Numbered from the stretch's first letter, positions 9,639 through 49,919 are shown. The stretch: DNA of 64,000 bases from Inquilinaceae bacterium (GCA_965250245.1 OZ252296.1:26994-90993), one strand, 5' to 3'. Program-made: numbers and translations. The notes: generated by a model not told the origin, from the letters alone.

Positions 9639-10129
9639 GCGGCCGCCACCGCCACCCGCTTGATCCGCGCCAGCGCCAGCTTCGACAGGATCACCGAGGC
9701 GGTGAACATGTAGAGCCCGGCATGCACCAGCACGCCGCTGATCACCGTCACGTTCAGCGCCGCCACCACCAGGGCGATGACGAACACGTCCAGCATCGAC
9801 CACTTCGCCAGCGACTCCAGCCGCGCGACGGCGGCATGGCTGGGATTGCCCGAGAAGAACCAGACCCACAACCCGAACAGCAGCTTCACCGCCGGAAACA
9901 GCACGGAGAACACGAACAGCACCGTGAACAGGAAATACTGGTCGTCATCCCACAGCACGACGAGCCCGGACAGGATCGACACGCTGTTGCTGAGGATCGC
10001 CAGCGTGCTGACCGTCAGCGACGGCAACACGACCCCGGCGACCAACAGGGCGAGCGCGACAAACAGGATCGGACCGACCGTCCACCGGTCGAAGCCCTTT
10101 GCCGTGTGATGCAGGGTTCGCGAAGCCAT
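9635..10129 (-). CDS. PqiA-like (paraquat-inducible protein A family) small membrane protein
   Basis: 164 aa with 4 hydrophobic segments and the segment LAKWSMLDVFVIALVVA typical of PqiA repeats. Its stop overlaps the glgA stop inside a CTAG. Confidence 0.6.
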   Translation of the reverse strand: MASRTLHHTAKGFDRWTVGPILFVALALLVAGVVLPSLTVSTLAILSNSVSILSGLVVLWDDDQYFLFTVLFVFSVLFPAVKLLFGLWVWFFSGNPSHAAVARLESLAKWSMLDVFVIALVVAALNVTVISGVLVHAGLYMFTASVILSKLALARIKRVAVAAA

Positions 10130-10171
10130 TCCCCGACCTTGGACAGCCCATGATGGGCGCTAGATGGTGTG

Positions 10172-11881
10172 CTATCGCGGCGAAACAATGTCGTCGAACG
10201 GCAGTTCGGTCGGAATCGCGCGGTAATAGTTCTCCGGTGACAGCGCCAGCTCGATGAACGCCGAAGCGCGCTCTGGCGGCGTTGAGATCAATTGCGCAAT
10301 TGTCAGGCCGAACTCCGCCACACGGTAGGCGCTATCCCCATATCCGGATGACGCGAGGCTCGATGCGAAAAAGGCGGCCATCTCCGAGGTCATCTGTGCG
10401 TTGAGGTTGTTGTCCGCACCTCCGAGCGCGTTAGAATGGATGTGCCGCAGCGTGGCAATCACACCCTCCACGTCACCGACTGAAGCCTGCAAATCAGCGA
10501 CGTAGTCGATTTCGGAAAGATCTTCCGCCCTTTGCGTGAAATCGCGCATTAGGGCGATTGCATCCTGAATGATCTCGCCGGCCAGATCGTCAAATCCGAC
10601 GGCTTCGGCGGCCCAAGCCAGTTCGAGATGGCGTTCGTAGTCCCCTGAATCACGCGCGTAGTCGCGTGCCAGAGAGAACGTGTCGGCGAAGACAGTTTCC
10701 GCGGCCGTGGTATCACCGCTGTCGGCGATCGCCCGCCCGATCCGGCGTTGCAGGTCGATGCGATCTGCCAAACGCACAGCCTGAGCGGCAACATCAAGTG
10801 CAGCGGAATAGCTGGAGCGGTCGTCCACAATATCAGCGATCATGATATGTGACTCGACGACGTTCCGAATGACTTGGGCGTCCTCGTAGGCTTCCTCGAC
10901 GTCCTCGGAATTCGGATCAAGTCCGGTCCGGATCTCTTCTGCGACCTTCAGGGAAACCATGAGGGCGGACAGGGCGGCGTCCGGATGGCCCATTTCGTTC
11001 TGAATACGTGCGATGGTCTGGAGGTCGAACACGCGCCCAGCTGGGAATCGAACCCCATAGAGTTCGGCATCCGTGACGATCGGGAATGCCAAGTGGACGT
11101 ACTTTTCAGCCGAAGTGAAATCTCCCTGCGTCATCAGGGAACGGGCGAGGTCCAGAATGAACCTCACGCGGCGTCTGCCGGAATCGGTGTGCGCCAGAAC
11201 TTCGCGCACACCTTCGACATCTCCTAACGTTGCAAACTGACGCTCAAGTGGCGCAAGAGCCATGCTGTCGGCGCCACCATTGCGAGCCGTGCGATAGATC
11301 CTTGTAAGCAGGTTGCTGGCTGCCGACACATCGCCCACTTCGGCACGGGCGCGTACGATCGAGAGCAGACCTTGGTGTTGCCCCCATATGTTCGTCTCGC
11401 GCCAAGCCTCTCGCTCGGCGGCGTCGATCGTCTGTCGGCCCTCTGCATGGTTGCCGGCCCGGAACTGCGCGACTCCAATCACGGCCATGAGCGCCGCGCG
11501 ATCGGAAGCACTGTTCAGTAGTTCGGTGGTGTTCAGCGCGGCTTCGACATCTCCGTCGATCCAATAGCTGTCCGCAATTGGCGACACGAGCCTGAACCGG
11601 CCGAATGGATGGACATGCCGAAGCATTGCCAGGGCTCCAGCCCGATCGCCTACATGAAGCTGGGCAGTCGCGATCCGATATCCGATGAGCGCTTCAGATC
11701 CGCCGGACATCGCAATTGGAGCCAGCGAAATTGCCGCGTCCAGAAGGCAATTCGGATCTTGTGCCTCCATGCACGTCGCTATGCGTTCCTCTATTTCGGC
11801 AGTCTGCGCCCAGGACGCAGAAGCGAAACCGGCGGCCGCCGCGGTGAGGAACCCGATCCAGATCGTTAGGAGTCCGCGCAT
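10172..11881 (-). CDS. Hypothetical secreted all-alpha repeat (TPR-like) protein
   Basis: 569 aa from an ATG start. Signal-like N-terminus (...FASASWA|QT). Helical Ala/Asp/Glu-rich repeats with no catalytic motif recognised. GC is lower than the neighbours (sampled lines 57-60% vs ~75%). Confidence 0.7.
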   Translation of the reverse strand: MRGLLTIWIGFLTAAAAGFASASWAQTAEIEERIATCMEAQDPNCLLDAAISLAPIAMSGGSEALIGYRIATAQLHVGDRAGALAMLRHVHPFGRFRLVSPIADSYWIDGDVEAALNTTELLNSASDRAALMAVIGVAQFRAGNHAEGRQTIDAAEREAWRETNIWGQHQGLLSIVRARAEVGDVSAASNLLTRIYRTARNGGADSMALAPLERQFATLGDVEGVREVLAHTDSGRRRVRFILDLARSLMTQGDFTSAEKYVHLAFPIVTDAELYGVRFPAGRVFDLQTIARIQNEMGHPDAALSALMVSLKVAEEIRTGLDPNSEDVEEAYEDAQVIRNVVESHIMIADIVDDRSSYSAALDVAAQAVRLADRIDLQRRIGRAIADSGDTTAAETVFADTFSLARDYARDSGDYERHLELAWAAEAVGFDDLAGEIIQDAIALMRDFTQRAEDLSEIDYVADLQASVGDVEGVIATLRHIHSNALGGADNNLNAQMTSEMAAFFASSLASSGYGDSAYRVAEFGLTIAQLISTPPERASAFIELALSPENYYRAIPTELPFDDIVSPR

Positions 11882-12033
11882 CTTTTGCCCGAGGCCGACC
11901 GTCGTGATCTTCGGAAATCACTATCTGCGATGGTGGCAACCTTATCCACCGACACTTGATGTTGGTGGAGTGCCACTGTCGCCGCAATGCATGTCGCTGC
12001 AGGTCGGTTTGTGCCTGGGCGGCTGGACCGTGC

Positions 12034-34494: not shown

Positions 34495-36327
34495 ATGGCG
34501 AAGGCAGAGTGGCAATGGCGCTTTGACCTGCCGCCGGAACGTCTGTGGCCGGTCATGTCGGACACGCCGCGGTTCAACGAGGCGCTGGGCACGCCGAAAT
34601 TCCAGGTCGAGGAGATCGCGCAGCCGGATGGGACCGTGCTGCGGCTTGCCCGGGCGCGCATGGGCCGGCTCGATCTCGAATGGGAGGAGCGGCCCTATGA
34701 ATGGGTCGAAGGGCGGCGCTGGACGCATCGCCGCATCTTCCGACTGGGCCCGTTCCGCGTTCTTGGCGCATCCGTGCTGCTCGAGCCCGACGATGGCGGA
34801 ACCCGTATGACCTACGGCCTGGTGGCGGAGCCGGCGACCCTGTTCGGCAAATTCCTGCTGGCAGCCGGGTTCCTGCGCCGCGCCGGGAGGAATATCGAAA
34901 GGCTGGCGCTGTCGGCGGCCGCCTTCGCGGCCGGCGAGCGCACCGAAGTCTACGACCATGAGCCGCCGATCATGACGGCAAGCGCCGAAGAGCGGCTGGC
35001 AGGCATGGTCGTTGAGATCGAAAAGGGCCCTTACCATCATGGCCTTGCTGCGCGTCTGGCGGATCACGTCCGGACAGCGCAGGAGGTCGATTTGATGCAC
35101 ATGCGGCCCCTGACCCTGGCCCGGTCATGGCAGGAGCCGTCCCGCAAGGTCGTCGAGGTGTGCCTGGCGGCCGTGGCCAGCGGCATGCTGGAGATGCATT
35201 GGGACCTGCTGTGCCCGCGCTGCCGTGGCGCCAAGGCGATGGTGCCGAGCCTGGACAAGCTGCCGACCGGGGTGCATTGCCCGTCCTGCAGCATCGACTT
35301 CGACCGCGACTTCGACCGCAACATCGAACTGACGTTCAGCCCCGCCGCCGCGATCCGGCCGATCCTGATCGGCGAGTACTGCCTCGGCGGGCCGGTGAAG
35401 ACGCCGCATGTGCGGCTTCAGCAGATCCTGGCGCCGGGCGAACGCCGTTCGCTGGACTGCGACCTGCCGCCCGGCGCCTATCGCCTGCGCACCCTGGAGC
35501 CCGGCGGGGAGTGCGAGATCGACCACGAGGGCGGCGGATTTCCCGGCATCATCGCGGACGGGACGGACGTCACCGCCGGGCCGACCGGCGGCCCCGGCGA
35601 GCTGGTTCTGGAGAACCGGGCGGCGTCGGAGCGCACCTTCATCGTCGAGAGCCGCGATTGGGTGCGCGACGCCCTGACGGCGCATCAGGTGGCGACGCTG
35701 CAGACCTTCCGCGACCTGTTCTCCAGCGAGACCATTGCGTCCGGCGATTCGATCGAGGTCAGCCAGGTGACGCTCATGTTCACCGACCTGAAGGGCTCGA
35801 CGGCGCTGTACGAGCGGATCGGCGACGCCGCCGCCTTCGCGCTGGTCCGGGCCCATTTCGCCTTCCTGGCCGACGCGGTGCGCCGGTGCAACGGCGCCAT
35901 CGTCAAGACCATCGGCGACGCGGTGATGGCCGCGTTCAGCGACCCGGCCGACGCCGTCGCCGCGGCGCTCGCGATCCAGCGGGAGGTCGCCGGCTTCAAC
36001 GATCAGCAGGGGGCGGAGGCGATCGTCATCAAGATCGGCCTGCATGCCGGCCCGTGCATCGCCGTCTCGCTCAACAGCCGCATCGACTATTTCGGCTCGA
36101 CCGCCAACCTGGCCGCCCGCCTGGAAGGCCAGAGCGCCGGCGGCGACATCGTCATCTCCGCCGCCATGGCTGCCGATCCGGGCGTGGCCGGGCTGCTCGA
36201 ACCCCACGCACTGTCTGACGAGACGGCAACGCTCAAGGGCTTCGATGCGCCGATCGGGTTCCTGCGCTTGCCCATGGCCTCCGCGCAGCCGGCATCGCGG
36301 TGCCAGCCGGATGCCGCGGCCGGCTGA
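34495..36327 (+). CDS. Class III adenylate/guanylate cyclase with an N-terminal SRPBCC-like domain and a 4-Cys motif
   Basis: 610 aa with the C-terminal cyclase domain (VTLMFTDLKGSTALYERIGD...IVKTIGDAVMAAF...GSTANLAARL). The middle has CPRC...CPSC. Confidence 0.9.
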   Translation: MAKAEWQWRFDLPPERLWPVMSDTPRFNEALGTPKFQVEEIAQPDGTVLRLARARMGRLDLEWEERPYEWVEGRRWTHRRIFRLGPFRVLGASVLLEPDDGGTRMTYGLVAEPATLFGKFLLAAGFLRRAGRNIERLALSAAAFAAGERTEVYDHEPPIMTASAEERLAGMVVEIEKGPYHHGLAARLADHVRTAQEVDLMHMRPLTLARSWQEPSRKVVEVCLAAVASGMLEMHWDLLCPRCRGAKAMVPSLDKLPTGVHCPSCSIDFDRDFDRNIELTFSPAAAIRPILIGEYCLGGPVKTPHVRLQQILAPGERRSLDCDLPPGAYRLRTLEPGGECEIDHEGGGFPGIIADGTDVTAGPTGGPGELVLENRAASERTFIVESRDWVRDALTAHQVATLQTFRDLFSSETIASGDSIEVSQVTLMFTDLKGSTALYERIGDAAAFALVRAHFAFLADAVRRCNGAIVKTIGDAVMAAFSDPADAVAAALAIQREVAGFNDQQGAEAIVIKIGLHAGPCIAVSLNSRIDYFGSTANLAARLEGQSAGGDIVISAAMAADPGVAGLLEPHALSDETATLKGFDAPIGFLRLPMASAQPASRCQPDAAAG

Positions 36328-38584: not shown

Positions 38585-39319
38585 ATGAAGATCTGCCGGC
38601 GGCCGATCGTCTGGAGTGGCCCTGGTTGGCTGCTCGTTTCGGCGGTTCTACTGATCGTCGTCTGCTTCCCGAACGAGGCGCCCGCGGAACAGCCTTCGGA
38701 TTCAGCGGTGGCGGAACTCGCCGGCTCCGGCCGGCTCCAACTTGCGTGGGAGCCGAGCGTCGCCTTCGTCGAGTTCTGGAATGACGGCCGCCCCGGCATC
38801 TTCGCTGCCACGACAAGTGGCGGCCAGCATGCCTATGCGCCTTGCGAAGGCGGTGTCTGCACCATTGATCAAGCGGAACGGGTCATCGAAGACTGCATTT
38901 ACCTGTACCGCATTCCGGCGCTGGACTGTGCGATCGTCGTCTTCGAACGCAAGGTGGTCTGGCGCGGCGAGGTGTCGAGCCCGTATGGCCGATTGCACGT
39001 TCTGGAGGACCACAACCGCAGTCTGGCCCAGGCACTGGTGTTCGAATTTCCCGGTCAGGAAGCGGCGGCTGCCACGGTGTTCATCAATCGGACACATCCC
39101 ATCGGGCAGTTCACGATCGAGCAGGACGCAATGGGCGGCTATTGCCTGGGCACCTACGACTTCCTGGCGGAAGATCACCGCCTCTGGGACCTGAGATGCC
39201 TGAGCGGCTACGAGGCGTCGGGCTCGTTCCCGGCCGGCGATCTGGCGAAGGGTGGGGCCGGGACCGGGACCGACAGCGACGGTGGCGAGGTCAGACTGAC
39301 GCTCCAGCCGCGCGGATGA
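38585..39319 (+). CDS. Hypothetical secreted Cys-containing protein
   Basis: 244 aa, starting 19 nt after scpA. It has an N-terminal hydrophobic signal and 8 Cys. No recognised domain. Confidence 0.6.
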   Translation: MKICRRPIVWSGPGWLLVSAVLLIVVCFPNEAPAEQPSDSAVAELAGSGRLQLAWEPSVAFVEFWNDGRPGIFAATTSGGQHAYAPCEGGVCTIDQAERVIEDCIYLYRIPALDCAIVVFERKVVWRGEVSSPYGRLHVLEDHNRSLAQALVFEFPGQEAAAATVFINRTHPIGQFTIEQDAMGGYCLGTYDFLAEDHRLWDLRCLSGYEASGSFPAGDLAKGGAGTGTDSDGGEVRLTLQPRG

Positions 39320-39354: not shown

Positions 39355-40026
39355 CTACGATCCGCTGAGCAGCGCGTCGAGGTCGCGGCGGACCTCGTCG
39401 GCGAGGATGCTGGCCAGGCTGGCGGGCGGCACCGCGCGCTGGGCCTGTTCCGGGGAAATGGTCGCCCAGTTTTCCGAGCCCGGGATCGGGGCGCTGCGGC
39501 GGGCGATGCGGTATTCCAGCGGCGTGTTGGTGCCGGCGCGGCGGTCCTCGACCAGCAGCTGGGCCCGCATCGACAGGGTGCAGGTCTGCTCGTAGACCAG
39601 CCCGCCATCGCAGAAATAGGCGCCGTCCACATTGACCCGGACATAGACGTCCGACGCCGCACGCGCGGTGTCGGAATCGCGGTCGACGAGGTCGACCCGG
39701 GCGCCCGGCGCCTGGTCGCGCAGCGCGTCGCGCACCGCCCGCCCGACCGCCTGATAGGCCTCCGGGACGTCGAGTTCCGGGCGCATGCCAAAGCGTCCCT
39801 CGAAGGAGGTGTCGAGAACGGCGATGCTCTGGCCGTCATAGGCAACGCCGACGATGGCGCTATCTTCCAGCGTGTTCTTGACGTTCTTCAGGTTTGGCGC
39901 GCAGGCGCCGGCTGCGAGGCAGGCGATCAGAATCAGCCCGCATTGGGCGACAGCAGGAACACGCACGAGGACCCTCCGGACTTCTTGTCGGGATCGGGAC
40001 GGTGAGCGGCGACGGTCTTGTATCAC
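39355..40026 (-). CDS. Hypothetical lipoprotein/secreted protein
   Basis: 223 aa from a GTG start. Signal with ...LIACLAAGAC. Convergent with the previous gene. Confidence 0.6.
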   Translation of the reverse strand: MIQDRRRSPSRSRQEVRRVLVRVPAVAQCGLILIACLAAGACAPNLKNVKNTLEDSAIVGVAYDGQSIAVLDTSFEGRFGMRPELDVPEAYQAVGRAVRDALRDQAPGARVDLVDRDSDTARAASDVYVRVNVDGAYFCDGGLVYEQTCTLSMRAQLLVEDRRAGTNTPLEYRIARRSAPIPGSENWATISPEQAQRAVPPASLASILADEVRRDLDALLSGS

Positions 40027-40232: not shown

Positions 40233-41066
40233 ATGGTCGGGATCAAGGCCGTGGCATCCGCCGCCGCAGTGCTTCTGGTGATATTGCCGGGCCTGGGCGC
40301 CCATGCGCAGGAGGGCACGCCGACGGAGGAGCGGCCCGGCGGCCGGCCCGGCGCGCCGGAAGGCGACTGGGTGTTCCGCCTCGGCGCGGCGGGGAGCTAT
40401 GGCCCTGAATACGAAGGATCGGACGAGTACGAGTTCAGCGCATTGCCACTGCTGGAGGTCGAGTACAAGGAGCGGTTCTTCCTGAGCCCGGTGCGGGGTG
40501 CCGGCGTCTTCCTGTTCAACGATCGGACCTTCCAGCTCGGCGTGGCGGTCGGTTACGCGTTCGGGCGGGACGAGGACGATTCCAGCGACCTGAACGGGCT
40601 CGGCGACATCGATGGCGGCGCCGTCGTCAACGTGAACGCCGAATACAATCTCTTCGAGCAGGAGATCCTCCCCGGCCTGTCCTTCGGCGCCCAGTTCGAG
40701 CACCAGTTCACCGGCGACGATGTCGGGTTCACCCTTGGCGGCGATATCGGCTACCGCTTTCCCATCTCCCGCCGGCTGTTCCTGCGGCCGTCGGTGAACG
40801 CCGTCTATGCCAGCGGCGAGAACATGGACGCGTTCTTCGGCGTGTCGGCGGCGCAGTCGGCCGGATCGGGGCTCGCCCAGTTCGACCCGGATTCGGGCAT
40901 CAAGTCGGTCGGCGCCTCGCTGGGCACCTTCTACCAGTTCACCGAGAACTGGGGCGGCCAGGCTTTGCTGGCCTACGAGCGGCTGGTCGGAGACGCCGCA
41001 GACAGCCCGATCGTCAAGGACGAGGACCAATACCGGGCGTTCCTGGGTCTGGTGTACCGCTTCTGA
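40233..41066 (+). CDS. mipA: MipA/OmpV family outer-membrane protein
   Basis: 277 aa with a signal peptide (...GLGAHAQE), alternating beta-strand pattern and the C-terminal aromatic end ...GLVYRF. Confidence 0.85.
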   Translation: MVGIKAVASAAAVLLVILPGLGAHAQEGTPTEERPGGRPGAPEGDWVFRLGAAGSYGPEYEGSDEYEFSALPLLEVEYKERFFLSPVRGAGVFLFNDRTFQLGVAVGYAFGRDEDDSSDLNGLGDIDGGAVVNVNAEYNLFEQEILPGLSFGAQFEHQFTGDDVGFTLGGDIGYRFPISRRLFLRPSVNAVYASGENMDAFFGVSAAQSAGSGLAQFDPDSGIKSVGASLGTFYQFTENWGGQALLAYERLVGDAADSPIVKDEDQYRAFLGLVYRF

Positions 41067-41242
41067 GCACGCCCGGGCCGCGGCGCCGGCACGGTTACTG
41101 CCCGCGCAGATGGAAATGCGCGCGCCCTCTTGTCGCAAAACGATTCCCCTTACGCCATGTTCCTGATATGTTCGGAGCTCCGGGGCTGCTGACCGGACGT
41201 GGATGCCGCCCCCAATGAGACAAATCCGGGCGGGGGACATCG

Positions 41243-42730
41243 ATGGGGCGATATCGCGGATTGCTCGCCGGGCTGTTGCTTGCGGGCCTGTCCGCACCGG
41301 CGGCGGCGCAATATTCCGAGAGCGTTGCGGGCTGGGAGATCGCCGGTGCCGACGGGATCTGCCTCGGCGTCGGTCCGGTCGTCGCGGGCAACCATGTGGC
41401 CATAGGGATCGGTGGCGGCGGCTTCCATCTGAGCGCGAATTCGACGCGGTTCAGCTACGGCTCGGTCCGCAGCCTGGCCGTCACCCTGGCGATCGACGAC
41501 CGATGGGAGCGGCGGATGTCCGCGACCGTCGATCTGGAAGACCTCCTGTTATTCGAGTTCGACCTGTCGGACCCGTTCATCGACCATCTCCGGGCCGGCA
41601 ACGTGCTGCGCGTGGACACCGGGCAGGCCGTCTTCAAGGTGGGATTGTCCGGGTCATCGGCCGCGATCGCCGCTTTGTGGGAATGCGGACGCCAGGTCGG
41701 CGCGCCGACGGGGGCGGCAACCGCCGTGCCCGCCGCGCCCGCCGGGCCGGATGATCCCGGCAACGAATTCCGGATCGGAAGCTGGCTCGGCGAAGCCTAT
41801 TTCCACGAGGACGGTCGCTTCGCGGCCTGCATGGTATTCGGACCCGAGGACGGGCCGGTGCTGCTGTTGCTGAGCCGGTCGCCGCTCGGGTTCGAGATCG
41901 GGCTGCAGAACGACGATTGGGCGCTGGCGGATGGTGCCCGCTATCCCGTTTCAGTCGCCGTCGACGATCGATGGCGAGCCGACCTCGAGGCGCAGGCGAT
42001 CGGCACCGGCAGCGTCGTCATCGCGCTCGATCGCGCGCCGACGGCCCTCGACCATCTGCGTCGCGGAAATCGGCTGACGGTCACGGCGGCGCAACAGGTG
42101 TTCCGGTTCGACCTGTCGGGCAGCAGCGCGGCGATCGGCGCGCTGTCGGATTGCTATGCGGTCCGCACCGGCGAGACGGAGGTTGCGGCGGCGCCGGTTC
42201 CGCCGCCGGCCGAGGCTTCGGGGAGCACGCCGCCGGGGCCGGAACTCTCCATCGGCGTCTACCGCCGCCCCCTCGCAATGCGCCAGTCTGACGTCGAGGA
42301 GTTGATCCTGAGCCGGGTCGCGCCGTCGGGGCGGGTCTGGATCAACAACGAGACACCGCCGTTCTTCGAATTCTACGGCAATCGGGGCGTTCGCGATGGC
42401 GGCCCGGTCTGGGGCCAGGTGATCGCCGTCAGCGTGCCGAGCGGGCTGATCGAACTGGCGATGCTGGCCCTGTATGCCGACAGGGTGGCGGAATGCGGAG
42501 AGGGCGGCGAGTCCGGCCTGTTGCCGGCGGAATCGTACGCCGGACTCGATCTGCAATACGCCGTCATACAATGCGGCACCGAACCGGGGGACCGGCAGGT
42601 CGAACTGGTGCTGATGCTGATCGGGACCGACGGCGCGCTCTACGTCATCGAGGGCGGCTACACCGATACCTATCGCATGGCCGATCTGGTGCTGGCGATC
42701 CAGACCCTGGGCCGGGCCGTGGCGGAATGA
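41243..42730 (+). CDS. Secreted paralog 1 (architecture SP-A-A-linker-B) of an uncharacterised family
   Basis: 495 aa with the signal ...LSAPAAAQ. Two copies of the module with DDRW / HLR(A/R)GN / LSGSSAAI.AL..C, then a C-terminal module with 2 Cys. Confidence 0.75.
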   Translation: MGRYRGLLAGLLLAGLSAPAAAQYSESVAGWEIAGADGICLGVGPVVAGNHVAIGIGGGGFHLSANSTRFSYGSVRSLAVTLAIDDRWERRMSATVDLEDLLLFEFDLSDPFIDHLRAGNVLRVDTGQAVFKVGLSGSSAAIAALWECGRQVGAPTGAATAVPAAPAGPDDPGNEFRIGSWLGEAYFHEDGRFAACMVFGPEDGPVLLLLSRSPLGFEIGLQNDDWALADGARYPVSVAVDDRWRADLEAQAIGTGSVVIALDRAPTALDHLRRGNRLTVTAAQQVFRFDLSGSSAAIGALSDCYAVRTGETEVAAAPVPPPAEASGSTPPGPELSIGVYRRPLAMRQSDVEELILSRVAPSGRVWINNETPPFFEFYGNRGVRDGGPVWGQVIAVSVPSGLIELAMLALYADRVAECGEGGESGLLPAESYAGLDLQYAVIQCGTEPGDRQVELVLMLIGTDGALYVIEGGYTDTYRMADLVLAIQTLGRAVAE

Positions 42731-44019
42731 TGCGCGGGCTGCACATGCGGCCGGCGCCCGCACCGCCTTGGCCGTGCCCCCTGATCCATCTCGCCGGATT
42801 GGTCTTGGTGGTGCTTGCGATCGGGATTGTCCAACCGGTCCCGGCTTGGGCCCAGGACGTCAGCAGGCAGCAGGCCTTCACTGTTGGCGACTGGACCGGT
42901 CATGCCAGGTTCGATGGGAACGGGCTCTATCTCAGCTGCGCGGTTCAGCAAAGGCGGCCATCGGGCACCCAATTGTTCCTGGGCCTTGCCGGGCATGGGC
43001 TGTTGATCGTTCTGGTCGACACGTCCTGGAGCCTGCCCGCCGATGGGCGCCGGGCCGCGACCCTCATCGTCGACGACCGATGGGTCGAGCGGACGGTCGC
43101 GACGAACTCCAACGCACACGGATTGGTCATCGATCTCGGCCATGACGCGGAGGCGGTCGATGCACTGCGCCGTGGGCGATCGCTGACGGTGCAGATGCCC
43201 GATCGGACGCTGCAATTCAGCTTGACCGACAGCAGCGCTGCCATCGCGGGGCTGCAGGAGTGTCACACGCGCAACACCCGACCGGCGGCGATCGCCGAGG
43301 CGCCGGCGGCGCCCGCCGGCCTGGCCTCGGCGAACCCGTTTGCACCGGCGGACACGCCGCCATCGGCGCCGGCCGCACCGTCACCCAGCAATCCCTTCGC
43401 GCCGGTCGGCGCGACGCCATCGGCGCCTGAATCGGCGCCGCCCGGCAACCCCTTCGCACCGGCCTCGCCGCAGGGTGGTGCCGGAACGCCATCCGAGATC
43501 GCCGCGGCGCCGGCCGGGACACCGGGCGGGCCGCGCCCCGAGCCGGCCCGCGACGGCGTCCAGCGCATCACGCCGTATCTGCCGTTCGAGGCCTTTGCGC
43601 TGACCGTGGAACTGCTTCTGCCCGGGGAGCCGGAGGTCTGGGAAACGCCGGACGACAGGATGGCCGATTACCAGTTCCGGGGTGAGACGGACCAGGGCCG
43701 CTATCGCGGCCTCTATCTGGAAGTCGCGCCGCTTGGCGAGACGGTGGAGGAGACCCTTTACCGGTTCATGTGGGTCTCGGAAATGGCCTGTGACGGTCGC
43801 TCGCGCGTCATGGGAAGCGGCCTTGAGCGCTTTGGCGGTACGGGCGTGGCGTGGGAGACCATCGAATGCCGCACGTCGGGCGGCCTATTGTTCAGCTCGA
43901 CGGTGGTTTCGCACACCGAAGAAAGCGCCCAGATCTTCGTCGTCGACGGCGAGACCCCCGTCCTCGACGTCACCAAGGAGCTCTATCGGCTGCTGCGGGG
44001 CCTTGCCCAGGACGGCTAG
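42727..44019 (+). CDS. Secreted paralog 2 (SP-A-NPFAP repeat linker-B)
   Basis: 431 aa. Its ATG overlaps the paralog 1 stop (ATGA). Signal ...PVPAWAQD. Module A (IVDDRW, ALRRGRSLTV, SLTDSSAAIAGLQEC) and module B (ADYQFRGE...ACDG...IECR). Confidence 0.75.
   Translation: MMRGLHMRPAPAPPWPCPLIHLAGLVLVVLAIGIVQPVPAWAQDVSRQQAFTVGDWTGHARFDGNGLYLSCAVQQRRPSGTQLFLGLAGHGLLIVLVDTSWSLPADGRRAATLIVDDRWVERTVATNSNAHGLVIDLGHDAEAVDALRRGRSLTVQMPDRTLQFSLTDSSAAIAGLQECHTRNTRPAAIAEAPAAPAGLASANPFAPADTPPSAPAAPSPSNPFAPVGATPSAPESAPPGNPFAPASPQGGAGTPSEIAAAPAGTPGGPRPEPARDGVQRITPYLPFEAFALTVELLLPGEPEVWETPDDRMADYQFRGETDQGRYRGLYLEVAPLGETVEETLYRFMWVSEMACDGRSRVMGSGLERFGGTGVAWETIECRTSGGLLFSSTVVSHTEESAQIFVVDGETPVLDVTKELYRLLRGLAQDG
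43333..43503 (+). repeat. 3 x 57-nt (19-aa) in-frame tandem repeat inside paralog 2
   Basis: The units are NPFAPADTPPSAPAAPSPS, NPFAPVGATPSAPESAPPG and NPFAPASPQGGAGTPSEIA. The Asn codons are at 43333, 43390 and 43447. Confidence 0.8.
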
Positions 44020-44087
44020 GGCGCTGATAAGCTGACACCGCATCGGTCCGCCGGCAGGCGGCGGACCGCCGGACGGAGGACTGACCC

Positions 44088-44645
44088 ATGCCCAATCTGC
44101 CCTCGCTGCCGGAGGGCGCCCGTCTGCTCGACGTGTTCACCCGCTACCCCGAGCTCACCAGGCCGTTGATCGAGTATCACGAGGTGCTGTTGCGCGGGCC
44201 GTCCCCGATGAGCGTCGGCGAACGCGAGCTGATCGCGGCCTATGTCTCGGGGCTGAACGCCTGCCGCTATTGCCATGGCATCCATGCCCGCACCGCGGAG
44301 GCGTTCGGGATCGAGGAAGGGGCGCTGGAGGCGCTGGTCGAGGATGTCGAGGCCGCCGGCATCGACGCGAAGATGCGGCCGTTGCTGCGCTATGTGAAGA
44401 AGCTGACCGAAACGCCGTCGCGGATGACCGAGGCCGACGCCGAGCCGGTCTTTGCCGCCGGATGGGACGAGACAGCGTTGGTCCACGCGGTGTCGATCTG
44501 CGCCCTGTTCAACTTCATGAACCGGCTTGTCGAGGGCTGCGGGCTGAAGGGCGATCCGGGCTATGCGCTGCAGGCCGGCCCGCGCCTGATGGACGAAGGT
44601 TATTTGCCGATCCTGGAGCGGATGAAGCAGATGCCCAACGGCTAG
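44088..44645 (+). CDS. Carboxymuconolactone decarboxylase (AhpD-like) family, peroxidase-related protein
   Basis: 185 aa with a CxxC-H motif (LNACRYCHGIH). No signal peptide. Confidence 0.85.
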   Translation: MPNLPSLPEGARLLDVFTRYPELTRPLIEYHEVLLRGPSPMSVGERELIAAYVSGLNACRYCHGIHARTAEAFGIEEGALEALVEDVEAAGIDAKMRPLLRYVKKLTETPSRMTEADAEPVFAAGWDETALVHAVSICALFNFMNRLVEGCGLKGDPGYALQAGPRLMDEGYLPILERMKQMPNG

Positions 44646-44655
44646 GCCCGGGTTC

Positions 44656-45762
44656 GTGAAGAGGATTTGGGAGATGTTGCGGGGGCTGATTGCATGTGGG
44701 CTGGCCTTGGCCGCCGTGATCACCGCGGTCCCGGCCGCGGCGATGGAACGCGTGCGAATCGGCGACTGGTTCCTGAGCACGGATGTGACTGAAGGCGGCG
44801 ACCGATTCTGCACGGCGACCGGCCCGTCCACCGTAGACAGCGCCCTTCAACTCGCCTTCCTCGGAGAGCAATTCATCGTGGCGGTGCTCAGCGAGCGTTG
44901 GACGGATCGGATCGGCAGGGTCGTTCCGTTGCAGGCGGCGGTTGACGACCGCTGGGGCCAGATGCTGCTCGGCCGGATCATGTCCGAGAAATACCTCATG
45001 GTGGAATTCGCCAGGGACGATCCGGTGCTGGAGCATCTGCGGGCCGGGCGTCAATTCAACATCTCCCGGCAGAGCAACGTCATCTCATTCGACCTGACGG
45101 GATCGGCCGACATCATCGAGGCGCTGATCCTGTGCAGTCACGGCCTCGACTGGAATGACCCGGCTGACCCGCGCTCGGCGGGCGCCGATGGCGGCGGGAC
45201 CTCAACCGGGCAGCCGCCGTCCGATCCAACTGTGGAACCGCTCGACATAGGCCCCGTTGCGGTTGGCGGTGACCGGCCGAATCCGACCCGATACATCGTT
45301 CCGCATGTCGAACCGCTGCAGTCCTTCGAGGTCTTCGCGTCGTCGGTCGCACGCGCCGTGCCTGGCGACCCGCTTGTCGAGCGCACCGAGCCCGGCAACC
45401 GATTCGCCGATTACGAATTCCGGGGCGAGGCTGAAGGCGGTTTCTACTTCGGAAAATACTTCGCGGTCGCCCCTCAGGGCGCGACCATCGTCGATCTGCT
45501 CAACCGGGAAATGTCGGTCTCCGAGGCCACATGCACCGGCGATCCACGATCCGTCGGCCGGGGCGGGGAACGCATTGGCGGGACAAGTGTGGTCTGGGAG
45601 GTGATCGACTGCGGTGGCGACAGTGGCGTGCAGTTCCGCGCCGTCCTGGTCTCCGGCGACGGCCATGAGGCCCAGATCATCACGGTGTTCGGCGAACCGT
45701 CGACATATGAGGTGGCCGTGGCGCTCTACGACATGCTGCGGAATCAGGTGCGGCAGCGGTAA
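44656..45762 (+). CDS. Secreted paralog 3 (SP-A-linker-B)
   Basis: 368 aa from GTG 44656. An alternative ATG at 44674 has GAGG 9 nt upstream. Module A (AVDDRW, EHLRAGRQFNI, DLTGSADIIEALILC) and module B (ADYEFRGE...TCTG...IDCG). Confidence 0.75.
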   Translation: MKRIWEMLRGLIACGLALAAVITAVPAAAMERVRIGDWFLSTDVTEGGDRFCTATGPSTVDSALQLAFLGEQFIVAVLSERWTDRIGRVVPLQAAVDDRWGQMLLGRIMSEKYLMVEFARDDPVLEHLRAGRQFNISRQSNVISFDLTGSADIIEALILCSHGLDWNDPADPRSAGADGGGTSTGQPPSDPTVEPLDIGPVAVGGDRPNPTRYIVPHVEPLQSFEVFASSVARAVPGDPLVERTEPGNRFADYEFRGEAEGGFYFGKYFAVAPQGATIVDLLNREMSVSEATCTGDPRSVGRGGERIGGTSVVWEVIDCGGDSGVQFRAVLVSGDGHEAQIITVFGEPSTYEVAVALYDMLRNQVRQR

Positions 45763-45780
45763 CCCGCCGCCGAGGGTCTG

Positions 45781-46329
45781 CTAGCGCCCGGCGCGGATTC
45801 GCAGGGCCATGGCCTCGGCGCGGTGGCTCTGGGCCGCCTTGGCCTTGCGCCGGCCGATGCGGTGGGCGATGCCGGCGAACAGCGCCACAAGGCTGAGCAG
45901 AAGGCCCAGCAGCGCCAATCCCGCTGCCAGCATGGCCATCGGCGGCACCGCCTCGCCCAGCAGCACCGGCGGCCAGAGCCGGATGGCATGAGAGTAGACC
46001 TCCCACCCGGCGGCGGCGCCGAAGCCCAGGGCCCCGATCAGGCTGGCCCATTGCCAGATGGCGATCGCCAGCAGCATTCCGAGCAGTCCGAAGGCGAGGC
46101 CGACCGGGCCGTGGCTGACCGCAACCGGCATTTCCAGCCGGTCCTGCAAATCCAGCATGCCGGCCGGCCAGACCGGCGATTCGCCGGTCACCTCGAACAG
46201 GAACACCAGATGGGTGGCGACCAGGACCGCAAGCAGGAAGGCGCACACGCGGGTCGTGGACCGCGCACCGGTGCCGCCGGTTTCGGTTTCCGGCGCCGGG
46301 CCCTTGGCAATCTCCCTGGCACTTCTCAT
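45781..46329 (-). CDS. Hypothetical membrane protein
   Basis: 182 aa with about 4 hydrophobic segments. ATG start. Convergent with paralog 3. Confidence 0.6.
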   Translation of the reverse strand: MRSAREIAKGPAPETETGGTGARSTTRVCAFLLAVLVATHLVFLFEVTGESPVWPAGMLDLQDRLEMPVAVSHGPVGLAFGLLGMLLAIAIWQWASLIGALGFGAAAGWEVYSHAIRLWPPVLLGEAVPPMAMLAAGLALLGLLLSLVALFAGIAHRIGRRKAKAAQSHRAEAMALRIRAGR

Positions 46330-46491
46330 CGACGATCCTGCGGCATCTACGCCCCGGCGGGGACTGTAAACCTGTATTTCTTGCTGCTTCGTTGAAGCGC
46401 TGCCGGTGCGTTCTCCGGGCCGGGGCCCGGAATCGCGGGATTATTGGCGCTTCGCGTCCCTGCCGCAAGCCGCGCGTAGGTCCGGCGGACC

Positions 46492-47403
46492 CTACGGTCC
46501 GGCCGGCTCCGCTGCGCGGCCGCTGCGCAGGCGGCTGATGTTGATGCCGATCAGGATCAGCGCCAGCGCCGCCCAACCGCCGGCCGACGGGATCTCCGCC
46601 AGGAACAGCCAGGCCCAGAACACCGCGAACAACGGTACCAGATAGCTGACCTGGCTCATGAAGGTGGCGCCGACCGCGGTGATGATCTGGAAGCGCAACA
46701 GGTAGGCGAGACCCGTGGGCAGCAGCCCCAGGAAGACCAGCGCCAGCAGCGCCGGGCTGCCGGGCATCGCCTGCCACGGCCGGTCGACCAGCAGCGCCAG
46801 TGGGACCATGTAGACCGTCGCGGTGATCAGCACCGTGGCCGCATTGGCCAGCGGCGCCACATGCGCGACCCGCCGGGTCAGCACGCCCGACAGCGCGTAG
46901 CAGGCCGCGGCACCCATGACGGCGAGCTGGCCCAGGACGCTGGCCCTGGCCCCGGCGATGGCATCCAGCCCGACCAGCACCGCGACCCCGGCGAAGCCCA
47001 ACAGCATGCCCGCGACCTTCGGCAGCGTCAGCCGGTCGTCGCCGGTGAACAGGTGCGACAGGATCAGCGCCACGAACGGGCCGGTGGCCATCAGGATCGC
47101 CGCCATGGCGCTGTCGATGTGCTTCTGCCCCCAGCTGATCAGAACGAAGGGCAGGGCGGTGTTGAAGAAGCCGATGATCGTCAGCAGGCCGAGCGTGCGC
47201 GGGTCCGTCGGCAGCCGCAGCCCGGCCAGCCGCACGGCGATCGCCAGGGCGATGGCGGCCAGAAGGATGCGGCCGGCCGCCAGGCTGAGCGGCGCGAAGC
47301 CGGTCAGCGCGATCTCGATGCATAGGAACGCCGATCCCCAGATCGCGCCCAGGGCGAACAGGCGGGTGGTGTCGATCGCGGTGGGCTGGCGGATCGGCGG
47401 CAT
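46492..47403 (-). CDS. DMT-superfamily (EamA) transporter
   Basis: 303 aa, 10-TM pattern with two EamA-like halves. Confidence 0.88.
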   Translation of the reverse strand: MPPIRQPTAIDTTRLFALGAIWGSAFLCIEIALTGFAPLSLAAGRILLAAIALAIAVRLAGLRLPTDPRTLGLLTIIGFFNTALPFVLISWGQKHIDSAMAAILMATGPFVALILSHLFTGDDRLTLPKVAGMLLGFAGVAVLVGLDAIAGARASVLGQLAVMGAAACYALSGVLTRRVAHVAPLANAATVLITATVYMVPLALLVDRPWQAMPGSPALLALVFLGLLPTGLAYLLRFQIITAVGATFMSQVSYLVPLFAVFWAWLFLAEIPSAGGWAALALILIGINISRLRSGRAAEPAGP

Positions 47404-48280: not shown

Positions 48281-48874
48281 ATGTTACCAAGGAGAGGTTC
48301 GCCCGTGTGGATCGCGATCGCCGTGGCCGGCGCCATCCTGGTCTTCGGGTACGTCTGGTACGTCTCGATCATCGGCCGGCGCAACAAGGCCCAGGAGGCC
48401 TTTTCCGGGATCGACGTGCAGCTGAAGAAGCGGCACGACCTGATTCCCAACATCCTGACCATCGCCAAGCGTTTCATGGAGCATGAGCGCGGGCTGCTGG
48501 AGGACATCACGCGGCTGCGCGCCCAGGCGTTGGACGCCGGCGGCAAGCCGGACCCGCAGGCGGCCAAGCAGCTGTTCGAGATCGAGGCGGCGCTTCAGGG
48601 CCGGATGGGCCAGCTGATGGTGGCGGTGGAGAACTATCCGGACCTCAAATCCGACCAGACCATGCTGCAGGCCCAGCGCAGCTACAACGAGGTCGAGGCC
48701 AACATCGCCGCGGCCCGGCGTTTCTACAATTCGGCCGTCACCGCGCTGCGCAACGCCATCCAGGTCTTTCCCGGCTCGATGATCGCCGGCATGGCCGGAG
48801 TCGGCGATATGCCGCTGTTCGAGGCCGCAGAGGCCGACCGGCAGCCGGTCGATGCCGACAAGTATCTGAGCTGA
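48281..48874 (+). CDS. lemA: LemA family protein
   Basis: 197 aa with one N-terminal TM, then QLKKRHDLIPNIL...ENYPDLKSDQ...AARRFYNSAV, typical of LemA. An alternative GTG at 48305 has AAGGAG upstream. Confidence 0.9.
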   Translation: MLPRRGSPVWIAIAVAGAILVFGYVWYVSIIGRRNKAQEAFSGIDVQLKKRHDLIPNILTIAKRFMEHERGLLEDITRLRAQALDAGGKPDPQAAKQLFEIEAALQGRMGQLMVAVENYPDLKSDQTMLQAQRSYNEVEANIAAARRFYNSAVTALRNAIQVFPGSMIAGMAGVGDMPLFEAAEADRQPVDADKYLS

Positions 48875-48893
48875 CGGAAGCGGGAGCCGCGAC

Positions 48894-49919
48894 ATGACCG
48901 ATACGACGGATATGGCAAACATCCCGGTGCCGCAGGACGGCGAGCAGCCGCAGACGCCCGCGGCCGCCCCGGCGGGCGGCGGCGGACTCGAAAGCGAACT
49001 GCGCCCTGTCCTGGAAGAGCTGGACAAGGAGCGCGAATCCCAGAAGAACGAGCTGCTGTTCCGCGCCGCCACGGCGGTCCTGGGAGCCGGCGCGCTGGCC
49101 GTGGTCTGCGCCCTGGCGGCGGTCGGTACATTCGGCGCCGGGCTTGCCGAACTCAGTGTCGTGATCTACCTGCTGCCGCCGGTGCTCGTTGCCGTGGCGA
49201 TCGGCATCTGGGCGATCCAGCCGCGCCAGCGCTACATTTCGACGTACAAATCGAAGGTGCTGCCCGCCATCGCCGGCACCCTGGGCTCCTTCGAATACAA
49301 CGAGTCCGGCAAGATCAGCGAGAGCCGGCTGCGCGGCTCGACCCTGCTGCCGCATTTCGACGACTACAAATCCGAGGACAAGTTCACCGGCAGCTACAAG
49401 GGCGTCGGGATCGAGCTGGCCGAGGTCAAGATGACCCGCGAGCAGGGCAGCGGCAAGGACCGCAAGACCGTGACCGTCTTCAAGGGCCTGTTCGCGTTGC
49501 TGTCGACCCACAAGACAGTCAACGGCAAGACCGTGATCAAGCGCGACGCCGGCGCCATCGCCAACTGGCTGGGCGAGAAATTCGGCGGCATGGAGCGCAT
49601 CGCCCTGGAGGATCCGGCCTTCGAGGAGCGTTTCGAGGTCTACGGCACCGACCAGGTGGAGGCCCGCTACCTGCTGACCCCGGCCTTCATGGAGAGGCTG
49701 ACGGCGCTGGCTACCCATATGGGCGACGGCCGGCTGCAGGCCGCCTTCTATGACGAGCAGCTCTTCGTGATGGTGCCCAACAAGAAGGACCTGTTCGAGC
49801 CGCCCTCGATCTTCACCAGTGTGGTGAAGGACACCGGCGTCACCCGCATCTCCCGCGAGATGCGCGACGTCCTGTCAATCATCGACATCCTCCAGCTGGA
49901 CCAGCAGACCGGGCTGTAG
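48894..49919 (+). CDS. Two-TM membrane protein, tandem paralog 1 (DUF3137-like, unverified)
   Basis: 341 aa, 19 nt after lemA, with GGGAG upstream. It has two long hydrophobic segments. Motifs: SEDKFTGSYKGVGIELAE, VFKGLFALLS, LEDPAFEERFEVYGTDQVEARYLLTPAFMERL and AAFYDEQLFVMVP..FEPP. Confidence 0.8.
   Translation: MTDTTDMANIPVPQDGEQPQTPAAAPAGGGGLESELRPVLEELDKERESQKNELLFRAATAVLGAGALAVVCALAAVGTFGAGLAELSVVIYLLPPVLVAVAIGIWAIQPRQRYISTYKSKVLPAIAGTLGSFEYNESGKISESRLRGSTLLPHFDDYKSEDKFTGSYKGVGIELAEVKMTREQGSGKDRKTVTVFKGLFALLSTHKTVNGKTVIKRDAGAIANWLGEKFGGMERIALEDPAFEERFEVYGTDQVEARYLLTPAFMERLTALATHMGDGRLQAAFYDEQLFVMVPNKKDLFEPPSIFTSVVKDTGVTRISREMRDVLSIIDILQLDQQTGL

Follow-up and report, generated by a model that had tools for sequence, protein, structure and literature searches.

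Three tandem paralogues of an unannotated two-module protein family in an Inquilinaceae bacterium, with an IalB-like predicted fold and a conserved [N/D]PF linker motif

IalB and DUF1176/YpfG occur widely as envelope proteins, but what they do at the molecular level has never been established. The Mog1p/PsbP-type fold is an alpha-beta-alpha sandwich, and several envelope proteins of this type are non-enzymatic and bind partners. IalB itself has one domain and a mass of about 19.9 kDa, a model of it based on 3DTD has eleven strands and two helices, and it is known by an erythrocyte-invasion phenotype in Bartonella only (PMC6299047). In our literature searches on DUF1176, YpfG, IalB-like proteins and periplasmic NPF motifs, no functional description was found. 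Here we have analysed a stretch of 64,000 nucleotides from an Inquilinaceae bacterium (GCA_965250245.1 OZ252296.1:26994-90993), called the window below, in which reading of the open reading frames (ORFs) gives five co-directional genes in the order mipA, P1, P2, CMD and P3 (Table 1). P1, P2 and P3 encode proteins made of two kinds of module, A and B, while CMD encodes a CMD/AhpD-like protein. We have found that P1–P3 belong to a large, real family that carries no annotation in the databases and is new to them.

We have compared the three proteins with each other by BLASTP. P2 and P3 match over the full length (E = 4e-43), while P1, in which module A is present twice, matches P2 with E = 5e-16 and 5e-11 for its two A copies, and P3 with E = 9e-18 and 9e-17. 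In addition, hidden Markov models (HMMs) of modules A and B were made from 68 other family members, with the proteins of the window left out to avoid circularity. These independent HMMs recovered all four copies of module A (E 1e-20 to 3e-44) and all three copies of module B (P3 2e-11, P2 3e-8, P1 1e-7), and no additional module copy was found in the window when the domains were mapped with the window's own profiles. By both kinds of comparison, P1, P2 and P3 are true paralogues with module A doubled in P1, as had been proposed in a preliminary description made from the DNA alone.

Each module has one conserved cysteine pair. In module A the two cysteines stand exactly 108 residues apart in each of the four copies, and in module B exactly 26 residues apart in each of the three, and among 69 family members of the A+B form the four cysteines are kept in 69/69, 69/69, 68/69 and 67/68 sequences. 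The earlier view of a locally expanded family with conserved cysteine pairs is supported; there is, however, one pair per module, and not the two disulfides per protein half that had been supposed at the same time. Presumably, the pairs are oxidised to disulfides after export. Other conserved positions in the 69 members are W32, D91, L141 and G125, in the numbering of P0001, the NCBI-derived entry for P3. As for the motifs quoted in the preliminary description, (I/V)DDRW is present in all four copies of module A, but HLR holds in three of the four (it is ALR in P2), and ADY(Q/E)FRGE is present in P2 and P3 only and is missing in P1.

All our calls on export come from a signal-peptide heuristic, which looks for a charged n-region, a hydrophobic core and an AXA-like site. 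By this heuristic, signal-peptide-like N-termini are seen in P1, P2, P3 and 63 of the 69 relatives, with AXA-like sites after AAA in P1 (next residue Q), after AWA in P2 (Q) and after AAA in P3 (M), in keeping with the secreted or periplasmic family suggested before. A reading of P3 as a lipoprotein (LIAC) was rejected, as the cysteine stands at position 14 (8 from the likely start) and has no preceding h-region.

We have estimated the size of the family by an exhaustive profile search against 1.84 billion cluster representatives, using the modules of the window as queries. With a limit of E<=1e-3 the family counts 1719 clusters (at 50% identity), of which 499 also pass E<=1e-10, and most of the family clusters are singletons. 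In the best 150 of the 1719, the architectures are A alone (about 165 aa), A+B, which is the commonest form with about 340-370 aa, AA, AAB as in P1, and AAA followed by a long tail (700-800 aa). The members are found in Rhodospirillales-type Alphaproteobacteria. Among 72,556 records of plasmids and chromids searched by tblastn, the family is found in Azospirillum only, where it is annotated as 'hypothetical protein'; WP_109333829.1 of A. thermophilum is an A+B protein, and WP_137165263.1 of A. brasilense Sp7 is a single A domain.

On the database side, Pfam gives zero matches at E<=0.01 among the 69 A+B members, and NCBIfam gives no family for them, with only stray single-member matches near the E limit to unrelated models. 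A profile of the 69 sequences finds nothing among the PDB sequences at E<=10, and PDB sequence searches with P1 and P3 return nothing meaningful. Assignment to a well-characterised family, which the preliminary description had held out as an argument against itself, was thus not obtained from Pfam, NCBIfam or the PDB sequences. When P3, the 69-sequence alignment or a central member was used for word-indexed homologue searches, essentially the queries themselves came back, and scans with a module A pattern had no match in the metagenome contigs and none in the genome contigs. With about 1700 clusters, this is a family that Pfam and NCBIfam could add. Apart from these searches, we have observed in L083 (405-5072; JGI 3300047676) a tandem pair of paralogues, 760 and 791 aa long, with three copies of module A each, whose C-terminal ~240 aa match neither module B nor any Pfam family.

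We have predicted the structure of P3 by AlphaFold2 with the 69-sequence alignment. The mean predicted local distance difference test (pLDDT) score is 80.9, with values near 90 in both domains and below 50 in the linker at residues 163-200. The single-sequence prediction reached a pLDDT of 43 and was unusable. In the model, module A consists of ten strands and two helices, and module B runs in the order helix, three strands, helix, four strands, helix. The top Foldseek match in the PDB is IalB of Bartonella henselae (3dtd), with five chains at E 2.4e-5 to 9.4e-4, probability 1.0 and a target template modelling (TM) score of 0.59-0.65. It is followed by 3lyd and then by a set of Mog1p/PsbP-type proteins, namely DcrB, PsbP, MTC28, LpqN and EagT6/SciW (probability 0.6-0.99, E 0.02-0.15, target TM 0.37-0.52, identity 7-14%). 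Foldseek gave these matches without query ranges. We have assigned the IalB match to module A from the secondary-structure content, because the 3DTD-based model of IalB is described as two helices and eleven strands, and the PsbP/DcrB group would belong to module B from its helix-sheet-helix order.

The comparison with IalB therefore has two sides. Both are exported envelope proteins of Alphaproteobacteria, IalB is the best structural match, and two helices with about 10-11 strands would be common to both. On the other hand, the IalB profile PF06776 finds nothing in P1–P3 at E<=1 and nothing in the 69 relatives at E<=0.01. Moreover, P1–P3 have 368-495 aa in two or three modules and are not single-domain proteins of ~180-200 aa like IalB; in the present family there are one to three copies of the domain, and the [N/D]PF linker joins it to a second one, with single-A relatives of about 165 aa present in the wider family. 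So the impression of IalB in module A given by the preliminary description is supported at the level of the predicted fold, and membership in PF06776 is not supported. Module B, in turn, would resemble DcrB (6e8a), LpqN (6e5d), MTC28 (4ol4), PsbP (2vu4) and the Eag chaperones (6xrf) in its predicted helix and strand order, but differs from them by its conserved cysteine pair 26 residues apart; DcrB and LpqN are, in addition, lipoproteins, whereas P1–P3 lack a lipobox that comes with a proper h-region.

A motif scan of the collected loci for bona fide IalB sequences found none. A search of BFVD listed among the fold matches a phage protein of 159 aa named 'IalB' from Sphingobium phage Lacusarx. 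An ORF of this phage (L102 41133-41612, minus strand), picked as this 'IalB' by length alone, has no match to PF06776 (limit E<=0.01) or to the PDB; it is the only 159-aa ORF with a trace of similarity to module A (E 0.1). The database name of the Lacusarx protein may thus be unreliable.

The linker between modules A and B is predicted to be disordered and is rich in Pro and Ala. Shortly after the last cysteine of module A, the family consensus has P in 63/66, F in 51/65 and N in 44/66 sequences. Exact NPF, in one or two copies, is seen in 47 of the 69 linkers, and several others have DPF variants. In the 150 best hits, 120 of 133 [N/D]PF positions lie within 40 residues after module A and 5 lie inside domains. 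Within 45 residues after module A, the motif is observed 122 times against 2.8 expected from composition. Its frequency also depends on the type of linker, with 63/109 for A-to-tail linkers and 10/53 for A-to-A linkers. P2 has three NPFAP copies exactly 19 residues apart in its Pro/Ala linker, for which NPFAP repeats had first been described, and a DNA-level tandem repeat was not found in this region. The linker of P3 has a degenerate 'NDPADPR' only, and P1 is without NPF. In the literature, we found nothing on an [N/D]PF-type motif in periplasmic proteins. We infer that [N/D]PF may be a docking peptide.

Based on the above analyses, we lean slightly towards the explanation that P1–P3 are a lineage-specific tandem expansion of a Sec-exported periplasmic family and act as non-enzymatic binding or adaptor proteins of the envelope. 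Each protein would begin with one or two mainly beta module A domains of ~130 residues with the IalB fold; a disordered Pro/Ala linker would come after module A, with one or two [N/D]PF motifs in most relatives and three in P2; and the protein would end with an alpha/beta module B of ~150 residues of the Mog1p/PsbP/DcrB/LpqN type. Module A would bind an envelope component, module B would contact a protein partner like other PsbP/DcrB/LpqN-type domains, and the linker motif would serve for docking. P1 and P2 would be translationally coupled behind mipA in this lineage, with CMD as a cytoplasmic neighbour and not a component. A non-enzymatic role is suggested because only W, C, D, L and G are found at invariant positions, where nothing looks like a catalytic constellation, and a binding role because the domain is repeated and shuffled in the way of binding modules. 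The adjacency of mipA hints at an association with the outer membrane or the cell wall.

Several points weigh against this explanation. The functional role has been derived from sequence and model alone, and the disulfides are backed by cysteine invariance and fixed spacing only. A clean NPF is missing from P1 and P3, so that neither the fold nor every member depends on the motif. The Foldseek E-values for the PsbP/DcrB type are weak (at least 0.02), and both fold assignments, IalB to module A and PsbP/DcrB to module B, depend on secondary-structure order. Besides, IalB has no known molecular mechanism, and therefore 'IalB-like' says little on function. Finally, no conserved gene neighbour was found across the distant members examined, which makes the link to MipA or the cell wall a local hint only.

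A more specific version, in which [N/D]PF is a periplasmic short linear motif that docks onto a conserved envelope partner, e.g., part of the outer-membrane or cell-wall machinery like the neighbouring MipA scaffold, and the family is an unrecognised class of modular adaptors (IalB-like plus PsbP-like), is in our view rather unlikely. If the docking reading were true, it could suggest a role of IalB- and DUF1176-type domains, and it would add to the few documented examples of a motif recruiting proteins in the periplasm. If [N/D]PF is not a docking site, this would be one more uncharacterised periplasmic family. In either case, what is new here is an IalB/DUF1176-type envelope domain in a new architecture together with a conserved linear motif, and nothing overturns expectations. 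In this family, a domain of the IalB/DUF1176 kind appears as a repeatable module, fused to a putative partner-binding domain of the PsbP/DcrB type, with a strongly conserved linker peptide. The [N/D]PF motif, the two invariant cysteine pairs and the conserved Trp/Asp positions provide handles for finding partners.

We have further compared the gene neighbourhood in relatives. The Logan assembly L001 has mipA with 87% amino acid (aa) identity, P1 with 50%, and a P2-like gene, and the adjacency of mipA and P1 is kept there. In L086 (Logan SRR28262572), a close relative, the order is the 3' end of CMD, P1, P2 and then, on the opposite strand, the 182-aa gene that follows P3 in the window, and there is no P3. 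Here CMD has 93% aa identity, P1 67%, P2 53% and the 182-aa gene 63%; at the nucleotide level, compared with 41131-46617 of the window, CMD has 89% while P1 and P2 have 71%. The same 4-nt P1–P2 overlap (ATGA) is kept in both L001 and L086. Judged from these two gene orders, P1–P2 is the stable, presumably translationally coupled unit and the positions of CMD and P3 are fluid, which implies that a CMD(+P3) unit was translocated or lost between the window and L086.

Distant members, on the other hand, stand alone. Their contexts are a response regulator and DUF4189; small proteins without family match and a TPR-CHAT protein; a tandem pair of AAA-type proteins; alanine dehydrogenase and glycosyltransferases; for the A+B homologue of A. 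thermophilum, an ABC transporter and msrPQ (~1.2 kb away); and for the single-A protein of A. brasilense Sp7, universal stress proteins and an acyl-CoA ligase. With the methylmalonyl-CoA mutase gene of the window as an anchor, we have collected from genome contigs 80 loci (the best 80% identical) in Rhodospirillales metagenome-assembled genomes (Arenibaculum, Azospirillum, Kiloniella, Tagaea). Neither module A nor module B was found within 10 kb in these 80 loci, so the position beside the mutase gene is not conserved. Therefore, the tight cluster seen in the preliminary description does not stand as a unit, and its 'interruption' by CMD more plausibly reflects a fluid gene order than an insertion with a function, because the cluster is conserved neither in L086 nor in the distant members.

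The other explanations, namely inhibitor or immunity proteins, a redox module with CMD, and membership in the IalB or DUF1176 families, are less well supported than a family of envelope binding proteins. The divergence just described is relevant to the first of them, in which the paralogues are periplasmic inhibitors or immunity proteins with different specificities that shield the cell wall from the cell's own MipA-organised lytic transglycosylases or from incoming effectors of a lysozyme-like or type VI secretion system (T6SS) kind. In L001, the identity is 50% for P1 as compared with 87% for MipA, and in L086 it is 67% for P1 and 53% for P2 as compared with 93% for CMD. Small beta proteins with disulfide bonds are also known among the periplasmic lysozyme inhibitors, the family clusters are for the most part singletons, and the three tandem paralogues have a mipA-family gene on their 5' side. 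However, the 182-aa membrane-protein neighbour diverges equally fast, so that the rate of P1 and P2 is not exceptional; no effector, T6SS or hydrolase gene was found nearby in the window or in the other loci examined; and Ivy, MliC, PliC, PliG and Tsi-type proteins are absent from the top Foldseek hits. We regard this explanation as having a small chance of being right.

The next possibility is that P1–P3 are merely divergent members of IalB (PF06776) or DUF1176 (PF06674), and so already catalogued. Besides the fold match to 3dtd, it is favoured by matches to PF06674 of 22.4 bits for the second A copy of P1 and 12.4 bits for P2, but these are below the gathering cut-off of 34.8 bits; P3 has no match, and neither do the 69 relatives at E<=0.01. 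We then built a DUF1176 profile from ten diverse proteins, i.e., E. coli YpfG and the copies of Roseomonas, Rhizobium, Burkholderia, Pseudomonas, Comamonadaceae, Sphingomonas, Acinetobacter and Klebsiella. By hhalign, module A aligns with the N-domain of this profile (DUF1176 positions 27-165) with a probability of 91.9% and E 7.2e-7 over 127 columns, including the early W...C and the 'L..G..i.....sL.G..AAL' segment. The single YpfG sequence against the family profile is not significant, and significance is reached only with the ten-sequence profile.

DUF1176 proteins are also periplasmic, with about 340 aa and two parts. The differences are, however, considerable. Module B gives no alignment to the DUF1176 profile, and the Cys-rich C-terminal domain of DUF1176 is not homologous to it; five cysteines of DUF1176 (C35, C41, C216, C241, C307) are invariant or nearly so, while P1–P3 have one pair per module, and only the first cysteine of module A has a counterpart in that pattern; and the DUF1176 consensus has no [N/D]PF motif. 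Because only the N-domain aligns and the cysteine pattern differs, these alignments identify module A as a remote homologue of the DUF1176 N-domain, and P1–P3 as not being DUF1176 members. Taken together with the lack of any match to PF06776 in P1–P3 and to either family in the 69 relatives, and with the distinct architecture (A one to three times, NPF linker, B), it is quite unlikely that the family is an already catalogued one.

The genes around P1–P3 have been identified more closely. The MipA-family gene matches PF06629 over its full length (181.4 bits, profile positions 1-221 of 221), upstream and on the same strand as had been stated before, and the CMD/AhpD assignment also holds, with 89.2 bits to TIGR01926 (cut-off 81.8) and a match to PF02627. 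The ORFs, the ATGA overlap and the gaps on both sides of CMD were read as in the preliminary description. The CxxC of CMD is C59/C62, within CRYCHGIH, and no signal-peptide-like N-terminus was found in CMD by the heuristic.

With this CxxC protein between P2 and P3, one may think of a thiol or redox stress module, in which the cysteine pairs of P1–P3 are redox-active sensors or substrates and not structural. CMD also adjoins P1, on its upstream side, in L086, and the A. thermophilum A+B homologue is ~1.2 kb from msrPQ. But CMD, having no signal peptide, would be in a different compartment; it is missing from every other family context examined; pairs that are 108 and 26 residues apart are not CxxC-like; and a hairpin separates P2 from CMD. 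A redox module is thus very unlikely. That P1–P3 are chance ORFs with coincidental motifs, in a window of ~67% GC full of long spurious ORFs on both strands, has practically no probability left, being refuted by hundreds of homologues at E<=1e-10, by the recovery of every module with independent HMMs, by orthologues with the same order and overlap in two other assemblies, and by the confident structure prediction.

The P2–CMD hairpin is of the form GGTCCGCCGG-CAGGC-CCGGCGGACC, and the 81-nt stretch 44015-44095 that contains it folds with -37.9 kcal/mol (z = -2.2). It was not called in the terminator scan, and the promoter and terminator scan was uninformative; the hairpin may be a transcript end or boundary, a stabiliser or a processing site between P1–P2 and CMD–P3. 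An Rfam scan of the window gave zero matches. For P3, the NCBI-derived entry has 362 aa and matches an ATG start at 44674. This start is more likely than the GTG used in Table 1, because AAGAGGA stands 8 nt 5' of it.

Table 1. Features of the P1–P3 locus. Positions are counted from the first letter of the window; aa, amino acids; HMM E, E-value with the independent module models.
Feature	Position	Strand	Details
mipA (MipA-family outer-membrane beta-barrel)	40233-41066	+	PF06629; ends 177 nt 5' of P1
P1, paralogue 1	41243-42730	+	495 aa; signal-peptide-like N-terminus, module A1, module A2, module B
P1 module A copy 1	41309-41686	+	aa 23-148; C40-C148; HMM E 1.3e-20; most divergent A copy
P1 module A copy 2	41762-42157	+	aa 174-305; C196-C304; HMM E 3.1e-44; PF06674 22.4 bits
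P1 module B	42365-42727	+	aa 375-495; C418-C444; HMM E 1.1e-7; divergent copy
P2, paralogue 2	42727-44019	+	430 aa; start overlaps P1 stop as ATGA
P2 module A	42871-43266	+	aa 49-180; C71-C179; HMM E 7.8e-39
P2 linker with three NPFAP	43333-43461	+	aa 203, 222, 241; 19-residue period
P2 module B	43549-44016	+	aa 275-430; C355-C381
GC-rich hairpin, perfect 10 bp	44044-44068	+	P2–CMD spacer; no T-run
CMD/AhpD-like 'peroxidase-related enzyme'	44088-44645	+	185 aa; 68 nt 3' of P2
P3, paralogue 3	44656-45762	+	368 aa from GTG start; 10 nt 3' of CMD
P3 module A	44746-45135	+	aa 31-160; C52-C160; HMM E 5e-23; AlphaFold2 pLDDT about 90
P3 module B	45289-45759	+	aa 212-368; C293-C319; HMM E 2.3e-11; AlphaFold2 pLDDT about 85-95
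182-aa predicted membrane-protein gene	45781-46329	-	convergent with P3, 18 nt between stops; no Pfam match

Some other observations were made in the window. Just 5' of mipA, there are two genes for envelope-type proteins without Pfam or NCBIfam match: a 244-aa hypothetical protein with a signal-like N-terminus (38585-39319, plus strand), beginning 20 nt past the mutase gene, and a 223-aa hypothetical protein with a lipobox-like LAAGAC (39355-40026, minus strand). Directly 5' of the methylmalonyl-CoA mutase gene, 34495-36327 (plus strand) encodes a 610-aa protein composed of an SRPBCC/polyketide-cyclase-like domain, DUF5939 and an adenylate/guanylate cyclase catalytic domain. At 48281-49919 (plus strand) there is a pair of membrane-protein genes, a LemA gene (PF04011) and, 19 nt behind it, a DUF3137 gene. 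Finally, the G+C content drops to 0.603 in 10001-12000, against about 0.67-0.70 elsewhere; a minus-strand ORF of 569 aa (10172-11881) lies at the same place as this dip, which may represent foreign DNA.

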